Source: a phage. Taken from it: a DNA stretch of 64,000 nucleotides. Below, piece after piece: positions 11,696 to 56,500 of the stretch. The stretch is from the sequence record PZ154897.1. One strand, written 5' to 3'. The position numbers were made by a program, and so were the translations under genes. Below the pieces are notes generated by a model that saw only the letters and a program-made list of their open reading frames with translations, had not been told where the DNA came from and made no database searches. Position 1 is the first letter of the stretch. Every line of letters begins with the position of its first letter.

Positions 11696-11719
11696 AAAGG
11701 GACCGAAAGGTCCCTTTTT
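11696..11719. terminator. bidirectional terminator hairpin between convergent 24 and rnlB
   Basis: GGGACC-GAAA-GGTCCC stem flanked by A-run and T-run. Confidence 0.8.
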
Positions 11720-11721
11720 AT

Positions 11722-12726
11722 TTAACTTACCAATTCAATCCAAGCCGGACGAAGTACATCTTGTACCATTTTAACTAATTCCTTCTTAATCAAAGAAGGA
11801 TTATCCGCTTGAGTTAAAGTAATACCTTCACGAGAAGTTTCTTCCAAAATATCTTGAACAGTTAGTCCCATCACCTTTCCAAAATCTTTTGGACCAATTT
11901 CGCCAATTTTAGAAATAACGTTATTTACTCGGTTCAGTGTAACGTAGCAAGCTAAAATTCCCAGCAATTTATTATCAGCTTCTGACAGCTCAACTTTAGC
12001 TTTAATAGGCTTATCAGACTTTTTCTTTTCGCTAAATTTAGAGTTCTTGCATTTGATAGCTACGCGATTGCCATTAGGCATCCAAGAAGGATAACAAGGT
12101 TTCAATACATATCCTTCAGCGGTAAATACTTCGCCTTTTGCTTCAGCATTCCAAACGCATTTATTTGCATCAACTAATCCAGCATGGTCTACCGTAAAAT
12201 TATAATCTTGGACGACAGAATCTAAATCATTTGGCAATTTAATAAGCTCTTCAAATTTACCGCGACCTAAAAGTGGAGCCATTTTAAATTTAAATGTATT
12301 GCAGAATGATTCCATCATATAATCATCGACATAAGTCACATCACCACTTTCGGTAGTAACAATAATGTCAAATACATAAAAATCTTTATCACCATAATCG
12401 ACATTCTTCTGAATGCCAGGTCCGGCGAATTCGCCAAAAACTTGATAAGATACAACCGCTGAAGTTTCCATAATATCTTGTACTGCTTTAATGGAATCAG
12501 CATAATTCTTCAAAATAATTTCATACCCAAAGAAATCTTCAGCAGGAAGAATAGGACCAGTTCGTTTAGCACAAGTTACTTTATCACGCTCAATAATCAA
12601 TGAGAAATTTGTGCCATGAATCTTTTCACGAGCTACCCATTCGCCGCCAGTCAATCCTAAACTGTAAAGTTTTTCAATGAATTTAGAATTGTAATGATTT
12701 TCAAGACTGCTATACTTTTTAAACAT
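11722..12726 (-). CDS. rnlB: RNA ligase 2
   Basis: 334-aa ORF, same length as T4 Rnl2; position after gene 24. Confidence 0.85.
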
Positions 12727-25724: not shown

Positions 25725-25772
25725 CAGGGATTGTCAATTCGCAAAGTAAAATATTAGGAGCAATATAACAAT

Positions 25773-25790
25773 GGGGACCGAAAGGTCCCC
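25773..25790. terminator. bidirectional terminator between 54 (+) and alt.-3 (-)
   Basis: GGGGACC-GAAA-GGTCCCC with T-run. Confidence 0.8.
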
Positions 25791-25796
25791 ATATTT

Positions 25797-26087
25797 TTAT
25801 TTACGGAATGAAATGAAAGCAGCAACTGAAGCAACTAAACTGTCTTCAATATAAACTTCAATTTTTACCGGAGCTTCTGACTCAAATTTACCTGTTACTA
25901 CACCTTGGAAAATACTTTCAGTCTGTTCTGGCTTTGAAAAATTTTCAGAAGGAAAAATTCCAAACTTTTTATCTGTTCCGAAAATTTTGATAAATTCATC
26001 ATAAACTGCTTCATTAAAAGCATTATCAGCAGGAATAACGCCTTCAACTACAAGTTCTTGACCTAAAAAGCGTAAAGAAGATTTCAT
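25797..26087 (-). CDS. hypothetical protein (alt.-3 position)
   Basis: 96-aa ORF with GAGGAA RBS, downstream of early promoter. Confidence 0.55.
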   Translation of the reverse strand: MKSSLRFLGQELVVEGVIPADNAFNEAVYDEFIKIFGTDKKFGIFPSENFSKPEQTESIFQGVVTGKFESEAPVKIEVYIEDSLVASVAAFISFRK

Positions 26088-26118
26088 TTTGTGTTCCTCA
26101 TGTTATGTCAGTAAGACT

Positions 26119-26148
26119 ACTATAACACAACACGAGGGACTTGTAAAC
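26119..26148 (-). promoter_or_regulatory. early sigma70-type promoter (GTTTACA-N17-TATAGT)
   Basis: Minus-strand -35 at 26142-26148, -10 at 26119-26124; drives ORF starting 26087. Confidence 0.7.
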
Positions 26149-26505
26149 TACATTTTGAACTTTTTAGTACGCGTAATAGGCATGCGTCGATTTTATACTG
26201 TTTCATTGTTTGAAGAGCAGTATCAAAAACAGCATTAATGACACCAATTGGATTTCCACCCAAGTTTTTAAGCTTAACTAATGATAGTTTCTCATTAACA
26301 CCTATCATTACGATATGCATCATTTTGTCGCCTGGCTTAACGTTTTTATTTGTATCACCGCCAGAGGTGTATGTACAAAATCTAAATCCAGGAAGCACGC
26401 TTTCTTCGCCGGCTTGAATAGCAAAATTTGTGGTATTTTATGCTTAGGATTTAAGTTAACAACCGGCGCCGAAGCGCCGTCAAATAATTCTGTAATAAGT
26501 TCCAT
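26120..26505 (-). pseudogene. frameshifted partial duplicate of alt 5' region (alt.-1/alt.-2-like ORFs)
   Basis: MELITELFD...NLNPKHKIPQI and PGFRFCTYTSGGDTN...MKQYKIDACLLRVLKS parallel Alt residues 1-120 in two frames. Confidence 0.6.
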
Positions 26506-26508
26506 GAT

Positions 26509-28560
26509 TTATCCTTGAACGAACTTGTAAGGCATGTTTGCAATATCTATGCAAGACGCAATAATTCCAAGAGATGATTCTACTTTCTGTTTAACATTTG
26601 ATGAAACAAATGATGCAAAGTCAACTCTATCTTCTATATCACCTGTCATTGTAACCAATTCACCAGTTTCCATTAAATGGTCTCCGTCATAGATTACCGA
26701 TTCGGTGAGTTCTTCTGTGGTCATAACTTCAGCTTGAATAAGCTTGTTGTTAGTTCTAACTGTTCCATCGTTGTAAGATGCATCGGTTATTTTATTAACT
26801 TTGACCATTAATCCACGTGGCAAAATGACTTCCATTTCATTTGAAGGCGCTAAACTTCCACCGGGTAAAACAACATTGACTTTATCAGCCCCAGTAATAA
26901 CCCATCCAATTCCAACTAAATTATCGCTAGAATTTACAAGTCCTTCATCAGTTTTATCAATAGAAACACTTAGACGCTTTTCGTCTGGTAAAACACCTAT
27001 AGATGAATCAGTCATCCAAGTACCAAAAATATTTGGATATAATGATGTTGACACAAAGTTTCTAAAATAAAAAACTCGATTTTTTACCATTGCTTCATAT
27101 ATTGAAGGTAACATTCGTTGTGAACGATACAAAGTAATACCTTTTGGTAATCGTTCACCATTTTTAAAGGCTGAATCTAAATTATCAATGGCTTGTTCTA
27201 TTTCAGGTGCTGTTAAAATACTTGTACGCTCATCTGGATTATATAATCCCAAAAGAGCATTATTCATGTCTACATATCCTGAACCTACATATTCACGAAT
27301 TCCGCGTTTTTGCGCTGGTGTGTATTTAGATGAATCTTTATTTTCGACTATAGGATGTAATGACCATCCAGCGGTAAGAGCATATCCACGTAATTCTCTT
27401 CGAATAATCTTTGTTTTTATTGCATTCCAAGAATTTTGTACTAACTCATTTGCAGCATCTTGGTTTAAATGCGAATGTCTGTTAATATTTCTTTCAAACC
27501 AAGCACCTTTATATTTTTCTAAAGTATCATCGACGATAGAAGCAATAGTTTCTAAAGTTTTTATTGAAGTAATAGATTCTTTTCGTAATTTTTCTAAAGC
27601 TTTATTTTTTATTTCTGCATTAATAATGGATTCTTTATCTTCAGGAATTATAGAAGCTTCTCTGAATGCCATCCCAGCTGTAACACTGCTAAGAGCATTC
27701 TCTAGTGCAAATCCTGAAGTAGAAATTACCGTTAATTCATTAGAATCAGAAATTAAAGGAGCGTCCGCTGGTTTATTTAATTCTGCCGCTGAAGCCTCAA
27801 ATTTTTGAAACATCGGTGTTTCAAATCTAGAAGATTCCAATGACTGACTTTGTGCAATTGCTCTACGGGAAATTTTAACTTTAACGATTACAGCTTGGTC
27901 AGAACGTTTATCATTTTCTTGTGCAATAGATGCTGCAATTGCCTCATTTTTAGTTACTTGAGCTCCAGTATCTTTATTGATATAAACATCACCGACCTTC
28001 GATTCAACCTTAGTAAAGAGCTCGGTACTAATTTCCGGAACCCCTGGAATGTCTTCTAGTGATACATTTTTGCGATGTATAAGAATATATGCATACTTTT
28101 TATCATAATCCCAGAGTTCCTTAAGAAGGACGTATCTGCCACCTGAACGACTACGGATAAGTCTATCAGCAATAACTTGAATTTGTCGAGCTTGACCAGC
28201 GGTTTTAGACTTAAGAATACGGAGCATACAAGCATCAATTTTATATTGACGCATTGTTTGCATTGCAACAGTAAAAACTGAATTGATATAATTAATTGGG
28301 CTTGGCCCAAGACCTTTCAATTTAGCAATTGAACCTTTAGCGGTTAATGTAAAAGGAACAATATGCATCATTTTATCGCCCATCTTTAAATCACGATTAG
28401 TATCACCTCCAGATGTATAGGTACATAAACGAAAGCCCGGTTGTTCAATTGCGTCATCAACATGAACTGAAAAAATTTGCGGTATTTTCTTCTTTGGATT
28501 TAAGTTTGTAATTGGAAGAGTAGTATCTTCGTCAAATAATTCTGTAATTAGTTCCATCAT
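26509..28560 (-). CDS. alt: Alt, packaged ADP-ribosyltransferase
   Basis: 683-aa ORF; T4 Alt is about 682 aa; synteny next to gene 30. Confidence 0.9.
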   Translation of the reverse strand: MMELITELFDEDTTLPITNLNPKKKIPQIFSVHVDDAIEQPGFRLCTYTSGGDTNRDLKMGDKMMHIVPFTLTAKGSIAKLKGLGPSPINYINSVFTVAMQTMRQYKIDACMLRILKSKTAGQARQIQVIADRLIRSRSGGRYVLLKELWDYDKKYAYILIHRKNVSLEDIPGVPEISTELFTKVESKVGDVYINKDTGAQVTKNEAIAASIAQENDKRSDQAVIVKVKISRRAIAQSQSLESSRFETPMFQKFEASAAELNKPADAPLISDSNELTVISTSGFALENALSSVTAGMAFREASIIPEDKESIINAEIKNKALEKLRKESITSIKTLETIASIVDDTLEKYKGAWFERNINRHSHLNQDAANELVQNSWNAIKTKIIRRELRGYALTAGWSLHPIVENKDSSKYTPAQKRGIREYVGSGYVDMNNALLGLYNPDERTSILTAPEIEQAIDNLDSAFKNGERLPKGITLYRSQRMLPSIYEAMVKNRVFYFRNFVSTSLYPNIFGTWMTDSSIGVLPDEKRLSVSIDKTDEGLVNSSDNLVGIGWVITGADKVNVVLPGGSLAPSNEMEVILPRGLMVKVNKITDASYNDGTVRTNNKLIQAEVMTTEELTESVIYDGDHLMETGELVTMTGDIEDRVDFASFVSSNVKQKVESSLGIIASCIDIANMPYKFVQG

Positions 28561-32966: not shown

Positions 32967-32995
32967 ATAATATCATATCCTGTACCAAAGTAAAC
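32967..32995 (-). promoter_or_regulatory. early promoter (GTTTAC...TATTAT) with 8-bp inverted repeat spanning -10
   Basis: Minus-strand GTTTAC at 32990-32995; IR ggtacagg/cctgtacc at 32956-32986. Confidence 0.6.
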
Positions 32996-32997
32996 AA

Positions 32998-33330
32998 TTA
33001 TTTTACTACTTTCCAGTGCTGCATGTCAAGTTTACCAACTTTTTTCATCTTCTCAATTAAGCGTTCGGCACGTTGGCGAGCTGTAACATAATACCATTCA
33101 CCCAATTCATTTTGTTCAATTTTTCCAACGATTACTGTATTCAATTCATAAATCCAACCAGTAAAGAAATTATGAACTTGGATTGTAAAGGTGAAATCTG
33201 TTCCCATACCTTCTGTTGTTTCTACTTCAATAATATCACCTTCAACTGCCATTAAGAACCACATAGTTTCATCATATTTACCATTGAAGCATTTAGTTTT
33301 AACTGTAGCGTTCAGATTAATCGTTTTCAT
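32998..33330 (-). CDS. hypothetical protein
   Basis: 110-aa ORF downstream of early promoter. Confidence 0.5.
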   Translation of the reverse strand: MKTINLNATVKTKCFNGKYDETMWFLMAVEGDIIEVETTEGMGTDFTFTIQVHNFFTGWIYELNTVIVGKIEQNELGEWYYVTARQRAERLIEKMKKVGKLDMQHWKVVK

Positions 33331-33357
33331 TTTATTCTCCTTTGTTTGTGTAAGATA

Positions 33358-33387
33358 ATACTATCACAAAGGAACTATACTGTAAAC
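33358..33387 (-). promoter_or_regulatory. early promoter (GTTTACA-N17-TAGTAT)
   Basis: Minus-strand consensus upstream of ORF starting 33330. Confidence 0.6.
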
Positions 33388-33416
33388 AACTTTGTGCAAT
33401 CTTTGGAAAATAAAAA

Positions 33417-33436
33417 AGGACTCCCGAAGGAGTCCT
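33417..33436 (-). terminator. intrinsic terminator
   Basis: AGGACTCC-CGAA-GGAGTCCT followed by U-run on minus strand. Confidence 0.75.
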
Positions 33437-33440
33437 TAAC

Positions 33441-33617
33441 TTATGCTTTCTGCTTACCAAAACGAGAAGCATCATCTCGAAGAACCGCACGTGCTCGGCG
33501 CATGATCTTCTCAACAGTTTGATTGATACGAGAGTTCGACCCACGCTTGTAACCAGCGCGTTTAGAATCACCAACTTTCTTTTCAACTGCTTTCTTTGCT
33601 TTAGCTTGTTTTGCCAT
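33441..33617 (-). CDS. small basic protein (rIII-region gene; identity uncertain)
   Basis: 58 aa from MAKQAKAKK; Lys/Arg-rich; position upstream of 30.x cluster. Confidence 0.45.
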   Translation of the reverse strand: MAKQAKAKKAVEKKVGDSKRAGYKRGSNSRINQTVEKIMRRARAVLRDDASRFGKQKA

Positions 33618-36889: not shown

Positions 36890-36919
36890 ATAATATCACA
36901 ACTCTACCGTAAAGTAAAC
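36890..36919 (-). promoter_or_regulatory. early promoter (GTTTAC...TATTAT) with 7-bp inverted repeat spanning -10
   Basis: Minus-strand GTTTAC 36914-36919; IR ggtagag/ctctacc 36881-36908. Confidence 0.6.
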
Positions 36920-39329: not shown

Positions 39330-39679
39330 TTAGAAAGGTCCTGGATGTCTTCTGCGAACTTGTTGAAGGAGTTGTTGATTTGTTTTTCAACCAATCCTGG
39401 CTTATGAGCCACCACATCCGCCTTCTTTGCATCTTTGCGCAGTTTTTCATTTTCACGCTCAATAGCAGCAATTGCCTCACGATTTTTATTATTCATCGCA
39501 TCAATATAATTATACTGAATTCGCAAATTATCTAATGCTAAAGCGTTTTCATTGGCCGTTTTTGTAATTTCTACAACAGACGTTTCTAATCTTTCAATTT
39601 TACTTTTTAAAATTAAAGAAGTTCCGCCCAATGCGATTACAATTAATAACAAACCTGCTGTCGTATTACTTAATTGCAT
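39326..39679 (-). CDS. predicted membrane-anchored coiled-coil protein
   Basis: 117-aa ORF; N-terminal hydrophobic helix LLLIVIALGGTSLIL. Confidence 0.45.
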   Translation of the reverse strand: MQLSNTTAGLLLIVIALGGTSLILKSKIERLETSVVEITKTANENALALDNLRIQYNYIDAMNNKNREAIAAIERENEKLRKDAKKADVVAHKPGLVEKQINNSFNKFAEDIQDLSK

Positions 39680-40176
39680 AAAGTTTTAATAACCTCTACA
39701 ATATCGTCTTGAGAAAGACCGTTAATTAAAATATGATGTTCAGCTGGAGATTTAGAAATTTTAAAGCATGCCTCAACATCTTCTGCCATATCTGATGCAC
39801 TACGATTTGGATTACTAATTCCAAGACGATGTTTTCCCGTTAAAGGATTAACGATGATATAGCATTTACAGCTGTTAATATGAACATTAGGTTGAGTCTG
39901 ATTAATGAACACATCACAATCATATTTCGCAAGCTGATTTTCTAAAAAGACTTTCATCTCCTCAACTGCATCAGGAAGCATATCACGGGCTTGCTCAAGA
40001 CGACGATTTCGATATTCTTTGATGGTCGTTTTCCGCTTAACTTGCTTAGCTAAATCTTTCTTAAGATCGGTGATATATCCAACTCGACGATTTCCTTTAA
40101 ATACAGAAATCCCATCTGTAGTATCACCGTATGCTTCAACGACCATTTCAGTAGTAATAAGCTGCAAATCCATCAT
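39670..40176 (-). CDS. alc: Alc-like protein (transcription termination on dC-DNA), by position and length
   Basis: 168-aa ORF immediately downstream of rnlA; T4 Alc about 167 aa. Confidence 0.55.
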   Translation of the reverse strand: MMDLQLITTEMVVEAYGDTTDGISVFKGNRRVGYITDLKKDLAKQVKRKTTIKEYRNRRLEQARDMLPDAVEEMKVFLENQLAKYDCDVFINQTQPNVHINSCKCYIIVNPLTGKHRLGISNPNRSASDMAEDVEACFKISKSPAEHHILINGLSQDDIVEVIKTLCN

Positions 40177-40204
40177 AAAGTCCTCATGTTATGTCAGTAA
40201 GTCT

Positions 40205-40234
40205 ACTATAACACAACACGAGGGACTTGTAAAC
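40205..40234 (-). promoter_or_regulatory. early promoter (GTTTACA-N17-TATAGT), near-identical copy of 26119-26148 cassette
   Basis: 53-bp identity with 26096-26148 except one base; includes leader and GAGGA RBS. Confidence 0.7.
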
Positions 40235-49014: not shown

Positions 49015-49044
49015 ATAGTATCACACTACTACCCTGTTGTAAAC
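49015..49044 (-). promoter_or_regulatory. early promoter (GTTTAC...TACTAT) with imperfect inverted repeat
   Basis: Minus-strand GTTTAC 49039-49044, -10 49015-49020. Confidence 0.55.
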
Positions 49045-53598: not shown

Positions 53599-56500
53599 AT
53601 GGCCGAGATTAAAAGAAAGTTCAGAGCAGAAGACGGTCTGGACGCAGGTGGCGATAAAATAATCAACGTAGCTTTAGCTGATCGTACCGTAGGAACTGAC
53701 GGTGTTAACGTTGATTACCTAATTCAAGAAAACACAGTTCAACAATACGATCCAACTCGTGGATATTTAAAAGATTTTGTAATCATTTATGATAACCGCT
53801 TTTGGGCTGCTATAAATGATATTCCAAAACCGGCAGGAACTTTTAATAGTGGACGCTGGAGAGCATTGCGTACTGATGCTAACTGGATTACAGTTTCATC
53901 GGGTTCATATCAATTAAAATCTGGTGAAGCTATTTCGGTTAACACTGCAGCCGGTAATGATATTACATTTACTTTACCATCTACCCCAATTGATGGTGAT
54001 ACTATCGTTCTCCAAGACATTGGAGGAAAACCTGGAGTTAACCAAGTTTTAATTGTAGCTCCAGTGCAAAGTATTGTAAACTTCAGAGGTCAGCAAGTAC
54101 GTTCAGTACTAATGACTCATCCAAAATCACAGTTGGTTTTAATTTTTAGTAATCGTCTGTGGCAAATGTATGTTGCTGATTATAGTAGAGAAGCTGTAGT
54201 TGTAACACCAGCGAATACTTATCAAGCGCAATCTAACGATTTTATCGTACGTAGATTTACTTCTGCTGCACCGATTAATATTAAACTTCCGAGATTTGCC
54301 AATCACGGCGATATTATTAATTTCGTCGATTTGGATAAATTAAACCCTCTTTATCATACAATTGTTACTACATACGATGAAACTACTTCAATACAAGAAG
54401 ATGGAACTCATTCTATTGAAGGACGTACATCTATTGATGGTTTCTTGATGTATGACGATAATGAAAAATTGTGGAGATTGTTTGACGGGGACAGTAAAGC
54501 ACGTTTACGTATTATAACAACTAATTCAAATATTCGTCCAAATGAAGAAGTTATGGTATTTGGTGCGAATAATGGAACAACTCAAACAATTGAGCTTCAG
54601 CTTCCAACTAATATTTCTGTTGGTGATACTGTTAAAATTTCCATGAATTACATGCGAAAAGGCCAAACAGTTAAAATCAAAGCTGCCGGTGAAGATAAAA
54701 TTGCTTCTTCAGTTCAATTGCTGCAATTCCCAAAACGTTCAGAATATCCGCCTGAAGCTGAATGGGTAACTGTTCAAGAATTAGTTTTTAACGGTGAAAC
54801 TAATTATGTTCCAGTTTTACAACTTGCTTATATAGAAGATTCTGACGGAAAATACTGGGTTGTACAACAAAACGTTCCAACTGTAGAAAGAGTTGATTCT
54901 TTAAATGATTCTACTAGAGCAAGATTAGGCGTGATTGCTTTAGCTACACAAGCGCAAGCTAATGTCGATTTAGAAAATTCTCCACAAAAAGAATTAGCAA
55001 TTACTCCAGAAACATTAGCTAACCGTACTGCTACAGAAACTCGTAGAGGTATCGCAAGAATAGCAACTACTGCTCAAGTGAATCAGAACACCACATTCTC
55101 TTTTGCTGATGATATTATCATCACTCCTAAAAAGCTGAATGAAAGAACTGCTACAGAAACTCGTAGAGGTGTTGCTGAAATTGCTACGCAACAGGAAACT
55201 AATGCAGGTACTGATGATACTACAATCATCACTCCTAAAAAGCTTCAAGCTCGACAAGGTTCTGAATCATTATCTGGTATTGTAACATTTGTATCTACTG
55301 CAGGAGCTACTCCAGCTTCTAGTCGTGAATTAAATGGTACAAACGTTTATAATAAAAACACTAATAATTTAGTTGTTTCGCCTAAAGCTCTGGATCAGTA
55401 TAAAGCTACTCCAACACAACAAGGTGCAGTAATTTTAGCAGTTGAAAGTGAAGTAATTGCTGGACAAAGCCAAGAAGGATGGGCAAATGCGGTTGTAACG
55501 CCAGAAACGTTACATAAAAAGACATCAACTGATGGAAGAATTGGTTTAATTGAAATTGCTACGCAAAGTGAAGTTAATACAGGAACTGATTATACTCGTG
55601 CAGTCACTCCTAAAACTTTAAATGACCGTATAGCAACTGAAAGTTTAAGTGGTATAGCTGAAATTGCTACACAAGTTGAATTCGACGCAGGCGTCGACGA
55701 TACTCGTATCTCTACACCATTAAAAATTAAAACTAGATTTAATAGTACTGATCGTACTTCTGTTGTTGCTCTATCTGGATTAGTTGAATCAGGAACTCTC
55801 TGGGACCATTATACCCTTAATATTCTTGAAGCAAATGAGACACAACGTGGTACACTTCGTGTAGCTACACAAGTTGAAGCTTCTGCAGGAACATTGGATA
55901 ATGTTTTGATAACTCCTAAAAAGCTTTTAGGTACTAAATCTACTGAAGCACAGGAAGGTGTTATTAAAGTTGCAACTCAGTCTGAAACTGTGACTGGAAC
56001 GTCAGCAAATACTGCTGTATCTCCAAAAAATTTAAAATGGATTGCGCAGAGTGAACCTACTTGGGCAGCTACTACTGCGATAAGAGGCTTTGTTAAAACT
56101 TCATCTGGTTCAATTACATTTGTTGGTAATGATACAGCTGGTTCTACGCAGGACTTAGAGTTATATGAGAAAAATAGCTATGCAGTATCACCATATGAAT
56201 TAAACCGTGTATTAGCAAATTATTTGCCATTAAAAGCAAAAGCCGCTGACACAAATTTATTGGATGGTCTAGATTCATCCCAGTTCATTCGTAGGGATAT
56301 TGCACAGACGGTTAATGGTTCACTAACCTTAACCCAACAAACGAATCTGAGTGCCCCTCTTGTATCATCTAGTACTGCTACGTTTGGCGGATCAGTTTCG
56401 GCAAACAGCACATTAACTATTTCTAATACTGGAACGGCAACTCGTCTGATATTTGAGAAAGGACCTCAAACTGGAACTAACCCAGCGCAGACGATGACTA

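Follow-up and report, generated by a model that had tools for sequence, protein, structure and literature searches.

A 54-bp early promoter cassette with a predicted Shine-Dalgarno-masking hairpin precedes alc and alt.-3 in a T4-like phage

RESULTS AND DISCUSSION

A near-identical 54-bp cassette lies upstream of alc and alt.-3

The window analyzed here, a 64,000-nucleotide stretch of phage DNA (PZ154897.1), is a Tequatrovirus (T4-like) segment. Its minus strand carries two copies of a 54-bp sequence, GTTTACAAGTCCCTCGTGTTGTGTTATAGTAG[T/A]CTTACTGACATAACATGAGGA, one 5′ of alt.-3 (copy A) and one between rnlA and alc (copy B; Table 1), and the flanks of both are 97 to 98% identical to T4 and its relatives. 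The copies agree at 53 of 54 positions, the sole mismatch falling at position 33 of the 54-mer (window positions 26116 and 40202). An earlier note on this DNA had described a near-identical cassette present twice with a single mismatch, which we confirmed, although the repeat is one base longer than stated there. In T4, the pair is also 53/54 identical, with the mismatch at a different position from that of the window. Similarity between the copies starts exactly at the G of GTTTAC and stops at GAGGA, and these edges were sharp in all genomes examined. No chance match with three or fewer mismatches was found in 100 dinucleotide-preserving shuffles, and no direct repeat in the window is longer, except for a 68-nt coding repeat near 55 kb whose copies are more diverged (66 to 71% identity).

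The gene downstream of copy B is alc, encoding a host transcription inhibitor. The earlier note recognized an alc-like gene here but started it at 40176, where another in-frame ATG is indeed present; the T4 annotation uses the second ATG, at 40173, from which the spacing between GAGGA and ATG is 7 nt, equal to that of alt.-3. Upstream of copy A, the alt.-2 open reading frame, the remnant of a degraded second alt copy, runs into the cassette and ends at the TAG within its −10 box. This read-through of the 5′ arm occurs in the window and in T4, whereas in genomes with an intact second Alt paralogue the stop codon adjoins the cassette instead. Together, alt.-1 and alt.-2 (window 26120 to 26505, minus strand) represent what is left of a second alt gene, in whose place most Tequatroviruses carry an intact 685-amino-acid (aa) second Alt-like ADP-ribosyltransferase; a 31-nt repeat, D9 (26478 to 26508 versus 28530 to 28560), corresponds to the 5′ ends of alt and the degraded duplicate. 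The alt.-3 transcription unit is closed by a bidirectional intrinsic terminator, and a related terminator hairpin lies at window 11699 to 11745.

Table 1. Features at the two cassette copies (positions in the 64,000-nucleotide window)
Feature	Coordinates	Strand	Remarks
Copy A of 54-bp cassette	26095..26148	-	5′ of alt.-3; overlaps 3′ end of alt.-2 remnant ORF
Copy A −35, TTTACA	26142..26147	-	
Copy A 5′ arm, anti-SD spacer	26124..26137	-	
Copy A extended −10 (TGT + TATAGT)	26119..26127	-	alt.-2 TAG stop inside
Copy A predicted transcription start, A	26112	-	From promoter geometry
Copy A 3′ arm	26096..26109	-	Ends in SD GAGG, 26096-26099
alt.-3 CDS	25797..26087	-	96 aa; DUF5498
alt.-2 remnant ORF	26120..26323	-	Degraded second alt copy; crosses −35 and anti-SD arm of copy A
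Bidirectional intrinsic terminator (GGGGACC..GGTCCCC)	25771..25792	.	Closes alt.-3 transcription unit; between alt.-3 and gene 54
Copy B of 54-bp cassette	40181..40234	-	Between rnlA stop codon and alc
Copy B −35, TTTACA	40228..40233	-	
Copy B 5′ arm, spacer CCUCGUGUUGUGUU	40210..40223	-	Anti-SD CCUC first
Copy B extended −10 (TGT + TATAGT)	40205..40213	-	10/12 match, TG present
Copy B predicted transcription start, A	40198	-	From promoter geometry: 7 nt after −10, in CTTAC motif, inside hairpin
Copy B 3′ arm, GACAUAACAUGAGG	40182..40195	-	Ends in SD GAGG, 40182-40185
alc CDS (host transcription inhibitor)	39670..40173	-	Second ATG, as in T4 annotation; PF17527 on orthologues
rnlA stop codon, TAA	40238..40240	-	3 nt upstream of copy B

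Across a phage collection, the 54-mer was found at 999 places in 500 records; there were exactly two copies per genome, a third was not found, and the copies were 12.4 to 15.9 kb apart (∼14 kb in the window). Six other GTTTAC..TAnnnT sites in the window had only the consensus hexamers in common with the 54-mer, indicating that the 54-bp pair is a specific duplication rather than a generic early consensus. This is what the earlier note had proposed, and the many genome-wide copies that it had set against its own proposal did not appear. A literature search for the 54-mer sequence found none, and an exact-match search of contigs with gp30.7 likewise returned none.

The repeat had also been suggested to mediate deletion or rearrangement. 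The interval between the copies includes DNA ligase (gene 30), gene 31, cd, pseT, and other genes, and no deletion between the copies was present among ∼500 sequenced genomes. Because the interval contains essential genes and no genome lacks it, a viable deletion between the repeats, and with it this part of the earlier proposal, is not supported; transient recombination products between the copies may nevertheless form.

Both copies match an early sigma-70-type promoter

Each copy contains TTTACA, a 17-nt spacer, and TATAGT with an extended −10 TG, matching the Escherichia coli consensus at 10 of 12 positions, and each is the top sigma-70 match on the coding strand of its own region. The arrangement that the earlier note had read from the letters, in which a −35, a 17-nt spacer, TATAGT, a leader, and a GAGGA ribosome-binding site precede two unrelated genes, was therefore upheld. 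Promoter features at both sites are absent from the reference T4 GenBank record. Promoter geometry places the predicted +1 at position 37 of the 54-mer, on the A of a CTTAC motif that recurs across the early promoters examined; the leader would be 18 nt long and end in GAGGA, with the ATG 7 nt on. Among Tequatrovirus copies, the −35, the extended −10, and the Shine-Dalgarno sequence (SD) are invariant core elements, and in G29A variants the −10 becomes TATAAT.

The gene alc is a known early product, and T4 early promoters fit this anatomy (PMC2988021). The cassette resembles the T4 early "uber" promoters (UP/−35/TGn/−10; Hinton 2010, PMC2988021) in its GTTTACA, 17-nt spacer, TGn, A-rich upstream tract, and association with the early gene alc. 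It differs from T4 early promoters in having TATAGT rather than TATAAT (although TATAAT occurs at alt.-3 in some genomes) and in that the whole spacer and leader are common to this pair but not to other early promoters. Relative to a published early −10 motif, TGTG(A/G)TA(C/T)(A/T)AT (preprint 10.1101/2024.04.04.588121), TGTGTTATAGT has the extended −10 TG and is off at two positions.

The promoter is embedded in a hairpin predicted to mask the SD

The sense RNA of the 54-mer was predicted to fold into a single hairpin of ∼18 bp (positions 12 to 53) that encloses both the −10 and the predicted +1. Positions 12 to 25, within the spacer, pair with positions 40 to 53, and the apical stem has 4 bp. 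The CCUC of the spacer pairs with GAGG of the SD, and the spacer therefore constitutes an anti-SD. The fold is stable (ΔG of −22 kcal/mol; z of −5.4 to −5.8), with none of 200 shuffles as stable, and in native context it reached −35.8 and −35.9 kcal/mol (z of approximately −5 at both loci). The antisense strand folds more weakly (−12.8 versus −22 kcal/mol) because three of the stem pairs are G·U. The spacer, −10, leader, and SD are conserved as one block because the whole unit is one hairpin with the spacer as its anti-SD arm. Of the promoter-plus-leader cassette described in the earlier note, the promoter thus stands, but the leader is more than a passive one.

Predicted SD accessibility depended on where the RNA begins. 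In read-through RNA (from 150 nt upstream), opening the SD would cost 7.05 kcal/mol at alc and 11.21 kcal/mol at alt.-3, and the predicted probability of an unpaired SD was 0.001 to 0.008. In contrast, leaders starting at the predicted transcription start site (TSS) were unstructured (z of approximately +0.5), and opening the SD in these self-initiated RNAs would cost 0.48 kcal/mol (alc) or 1.61 kcal/mol (alt.-3).

Several other assignments were considered for the element. Rfam covariance models gave no match at either copy with an E value of ≤1, and Rfam family membership was rejected. No U-tract follows either hairpin (tails ACUUUAUGAUG at alc and AACACAAAAUG at alt.-3) and a terminator scan was negative; an intrinsic (Rho-independent) terminator was accordingly rejected at both copies. 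Targeting of the Tequatrovirus SD by RegB was rejected because GAGGA lacks the GGAG/U of RegB specificity. An AUG in the leader (54-mer positions 48 to 50) opens a mini-ORF of 4 to 5 codons (window 40171 to 40187 and 26085 to 26101, minus strand), whose UGA overlaps the true start region (AUGA) at both sites; since it has no SD of its own, the mini-ORF is probably a coincidence.

We also quantified variation in the stem within Tequatrovirus. In 28 haplotypes, pairing was kept in 92.7% of cells. One-sided changes that leave the pair intact occur at six stem pairs, and the loop and bulge, where most of the remaining variation falls, are largely unconstrained. Of the distinct stem substitutions, roughly half disrupt pairing, among them G29A, a common variant at alt.-3. 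With so little divergence among the 28 haplotypes and every change confined to one side of a pair, there was no double-sided covariation and no significant covariation overall; shuffling controls were uninformative.

The hairpin design recurs at alc in other T4-like genera

The 54-mer was not found upstream of alc in JS98-like, CF1/Moon-like, Klebsiella, or other T4-like phages. The alc orthologues of other genera (45 to 60% aa identity) nonetheless have TTTACA upstream, and the spacer after it is again an anti-SD, pairing with an SD ∼35 nt further on and leaving the −10 in the loop. The stem arms read UCUCCUCAU/AUGAGGAGA in JS98-like phages, UCUCCGUUU.../...AAACGGAGA in L020, UCUCCAUUUGGUU/AACCAAAUGGAGA in CF1/Moon-like phages, UCCUCAUUUCGUU/AACGAAAUGAGGA in L024, and CCUCGUUUGUU/AACAAACGAGG in Klebsiella phages. 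These hairpins had z values of −2.3 to −6.5, and opening the SD was predicted to cost 7.5 to 12.3 kcal/mol in read-through RNA versus 0.3 to 2.3 kcal/mol from the cassette's own TSS. Between clearly homologous cassettes, compensatory changes affect both arms (for example, CUCC/GGAG exchanged for CCUC/GAGG, A-U versus G-C, and G-C versus C-G); these were counted on −35-anchored, individually folded sequences, which is less independent than counting on an alignment. When nine alc cassettes were aligned with MAFFT and passed to RNAalifold, the stems fell out of register and no consensus structure emerged. In a few lineages, the −10 hairpin at alc stops short of the SD or the promoter is absent. 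From this distribution, we infer that alc already had the promoter-in-hairpin design in the ancestor of the T4-like genera.

In other genera, too, alt.-3 is served by an early promoter of its own at the equivalent position, where the TAG stop again overlaps the −35. SD masking by these outgroup promoters was weak (2.1 to 5.4 kcal/mol), and their spacer and leader are unlike those of the alc cassette of the same genome. Overall identity (74% versus 71%) is dominated by the promoter consensus and does not reveal which copy was the source. The outgroups keep the design at alc and not at alt.-3, so the resident alt.-3 promoter was probably replaced, in the ancestor of Tequatrovirus, by a copy of the alc cassette. 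An analogous promoter/leader duplication is present in another genus: JS98-like Dhakavirus genomes (L009 to L014) carry their own 49-bp repeat, TATAGAC[A/C]TGTACCAAATAATACGAAAACAAACTGGAGAATAAAATGAA, spanning −10, leader, SD, and ATG at ∼11.2 to 11.8 kb in locus coordinates, with the copies ∼406 bp apart, just 3′ of gene 31, on either side of one small ORF.

Comparison across genomes suggests that the two sites still exchange sequence

In 23 genomes with both copies, we found no fixed differences between the two sites and eight shared polymorphic positions with the same alleles. Distances between orthologous copies (2.9 and 2.6) were close to those between paralogous copies (3.0), giving an Fst-like value of 0.07. 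Multi-position haplotypes also cross between sites: some genomes have T11+A16 at alt.-3 and another has it at alc, and both copies of one genome share a rare haplotype, A32+A34, that was not seen elsewhere in the 23. A metagenome scan yielded only eight more stretches and added a single-variant A32 haplotype at alt.-3. Nucleotide diversity (pi) was 0.047 to 0.056 in the repeat versus 0.026 to 0.041 in the coding flanks; because the repeat is more polymorphic than its flanks, strong purifying selection is not by itself a sufficient reason for the two sites having failed to diverge.

Within genomes, the signal was weaker. Excess similarity of the two copies of a genome gave a P of 0.01 in a 19-genome subset and 0.07 to 0.09 in the 23 genomes, and co-occurrence of minor alleles within genomes gave a P of 0.066. 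A weak within-genome signal could be expected if recombination between phages is frequent, and recurrent mutation at the few free sites could be a partial alternative. The pattern resembles concerted evolution of short paralogous repeats in the lack of fixed differences, the shared polymorphisms and haplotypes, and a paralogous divergence similar to the orthologous one; it differs in that the tract is just 54 bp and within-genome homogenization is statistically weak. Singer and colleagues reportedly determined in 1982 the minimum homology for T4 recombination, and 54 bp is said to be close to that minimum. Taken together, these comparisons suggest continuing gene conversion between the alc and alt.-3 cassettes. 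The earlier note had offered duplication or gene conversion as the origin of the pair, and the cross-genus design, the lack of fixed differences, and the shared haplotypes support it.

The cassette combines features of two known systems

Promoter-early stem-loop (PeSL) cassettes of T4-type phages (Arbiol et al. 2010, PMC2839356; Comeau et al. 2014, PMC4122927) consist of an upstream stop, an A/T-rich tract, a sigma-70-like promoter, a stem-loop overlapping the −10, an SD, and an ATG, with the PST/T4 promoter consensus TTTACW-N17-TAYWAT; the stem-loop is read as a terminator, and neither SD masking, translation, nor gene conversion is mentioned (PMC2839356, PMC4122927). The 54-bp cassettes share this layout from stop to ATG, including the stem-loop on the −10, and are likewise repeated and able to recombine. 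The order from upstream stop to SD and ATG is present at both sites, although at alt.-3 in the window the degraded alt.-2 runs into the cassette, and the stable stem-loop expected between −35 and −10 or over the −10 lies at positions 12 to 53. PeSL copies, however, are described as many and only loosely similar, lying in hyperplastic regions on either side of variable ORFans 1 to 4 kb apart, with a part in indels and mini-circles. The 54-mer departs from this pattern: each genome has just two copies, nearly identical and at fixed loci ∼14 kb apart around essential genes, to which the other promoters of the window bear only a loose resemblance, and here the 3′ arm of the stem is the SD itself.

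The second system comprises the T4 genes e, soc, 49, and I-TevI, in which the SD lies in a helix on long upstream transcripts and RNA from an internal promoter, lacking the 5′ arm, is translatable (PMC3014915). This translational gate was shown experimentally for e and I-TevI, with soc and 49 listed (PMC3014915). The cassettes at alc and alt.-3 resemble these gates in their predicted sequestration of the SD in upstream-initiated RNA and free SD in RNA from the internal promoter. They are a mirror image in timing: the known gates use late promoters (TATAAATA) and are late-only, whereas the early sigma-70 promoter here would make expression early-only. Neither alc nor alt.-3 is among the listed promoter-in-hairpin cases (PMC3014915), and the gate proposed here is a predicted one. 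The pair thus belongs to known kinds, PeSL cassettes and promoter-in-hairpin gates, with an early-promoter twist and a function predicted from folding.

SD masking by a promoter hairpin was predicted for three of the seven early promoter/gene starts in the window, namely, the two copies and 33358 to 33387. In this third case (window 33330 to 33387, minus strand), the early promoter also has an anti-SD spacer, UUCCUUUGU pairing with ACAAAGGAG, and opening the SD of the 30.8-like gene at 33330 would cost 8.4 kcal/mol in read-through RNA versus 0.07 kcal/mol from its own TSS. The early promoters at 32967 to 32995, 36890 to 36919, and 49015 to 49044 (minus strand) have strong −10-centered hairpins (ΔG of −15 to −19 kcal/mol) that end before the SD and are PeSL-like.

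A model for early-only translation and its alternatives

We consider it probable that the pair is a PeSL-type early cassette whose hairpin masks the SD, restricting translation to the early period, and that it arose by copying from alc to alt.-3 followed by occasional exchange. Each cassette would comprise, in order, the end of the upstream gene, a UP-like A-rich tract, TTTACA, the 17-nt spacer, TGnTATAGT, the +1 A, the leader, GAGGA, and the ATG. Right after infection, host RNA polymerase (sigma-70) would initiate at the cassette; the RNA would start within the hairpin, lack the 5′ arm, and present a free SD, such that Alc and Alt.-3 are made. RNA arriving from upstream (rnlA to alc, or alt/alt.-2 to alt.-3) would have both arms, fold, and bury the SD. 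The upstream genes, rnlA and alt with its second copy, have late functions. Translation of Alc and Alt.-3 would then depend almost entirely on the transcripts that each gene's own early promoter supplies during the first minutes after infection, and longer middle or late read-through RNAs would yield neither protein. If the alt.-2 remnant is translated, ribosomes crossing the 5′ arm could open the copy A hairpin. As for origin, the alc cassette may have overwritten the alt.-3 promoter in the Tequatrovirus ancestor, with the conversion ending in the shared −35 and SD microhomologies, and the two 54-bp copies would still swap sequence now and then. A more far-reaching version, in which an ancient early-only gate present across T4-like genera was moved as a block onto alt.-3 and its copies are still being homogenized, is one that we put forward tentatively, as rather less than probable.

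The alternative that we take most seriously, although we regard it as unlikely, is that the stem-loop serves mainly as a terminator or attenuator shielding alc and alt.-3 from upstream transcription, with SD masking incidental. Such a role was proposed in the PeSL papers, where one G/C-rich RB49 stem-loop was tested as a terminator, and the element sits exactly at gene boundaries. However, a U-tract is missing after the outgroup alc hairpins as well as after both copies, where the terminator scan was blank, and in most lineages the 3′ arm ends exactly at the SD, which a terminator would not need; the two roles are compatible and not mutually exclusive. It is less likely still that a plain strong early promoter was duplicated, that the hairpin is a by-product, and that the copies remain alike through purifying selection without gene conversion. 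The spacer and leader, unneeded for a promoter or ribosome-binding site, remain complementary to each other across many genera although their sequences differ, and the polymorphism of the repeat exceeds that of the coding flanks while the two sites have no fixed difference and carry the same multi-SNP haplotypes. This account does fit the invariant −35, extended −10, and SD and the nonsignificant within-genome association, and the shared polymorphisms could reflect the small number of free sites.

Two further readings were weighed. A long, near-perfect duplex of ∼18 bp at a cistron boundary could serve in RNA processing or stability, for instance as an RNase III-type site or by protecting the 3′ ends of the upstream rnlA and alt mRNAs, but we think this very unlikely, as it leaves unexplained why the SD is always at the base of the 3′ arm and why the promoter start lies inside the structure. 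The least credible is a DNA-level palindrome acting as a cruciform, protein-binding site, or recombination hotspot. The DNA does contain an imperfect inverted repeat, and PeSLs are proposed recombination sites; yet the three G·U pairs, along with variants that interchange G·U and Watson-Crick pairs, make the structure stronger in sense RNA than in antisense.

If the SD-masking cassette is as proposed, it would be a natural portable regulatory cassette that moves between loci in a virulent phage, a concrete case in which a promoter/leader/ribosome-binding-site module took over the promoter of another gene and keeps exchanging sequence with its source. It would extend T4 promoter-in-hairpin logic from late to immediate-early genes, and at least some PeSL stem-loops would be translational gates rather than terminators. 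The shut-off of T4 early expression is still incompletely understood (PMC3014915, PMC2988021), and the cassette would offer a simple cis-acting way to stop synthesis of early proteins while later read-through RNAs carry the coding sequence. The 54-bp unit would also give phage engineers a small, portable part for early-only expression. The basic picture of T4 biology would be unchanged by this, a refinement rather than a surprise.

Additional elements in the window

Two other elements were noted in the window. At 33402 to 33485 (minus strand), there was a sub-threshold Rfam match to Atu_C8, a Rhizobiales small RNA (32.5 bits versus a gathering score of 50; E = 0.003), which is most likely due to chance. 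At 55000 to 55925 (plus strand), diverged tandem-like direct repeats of 33 to 68 nt (families D1 and D2) lie in a coding region, probably that of a tail-fiber-type repeat protein.
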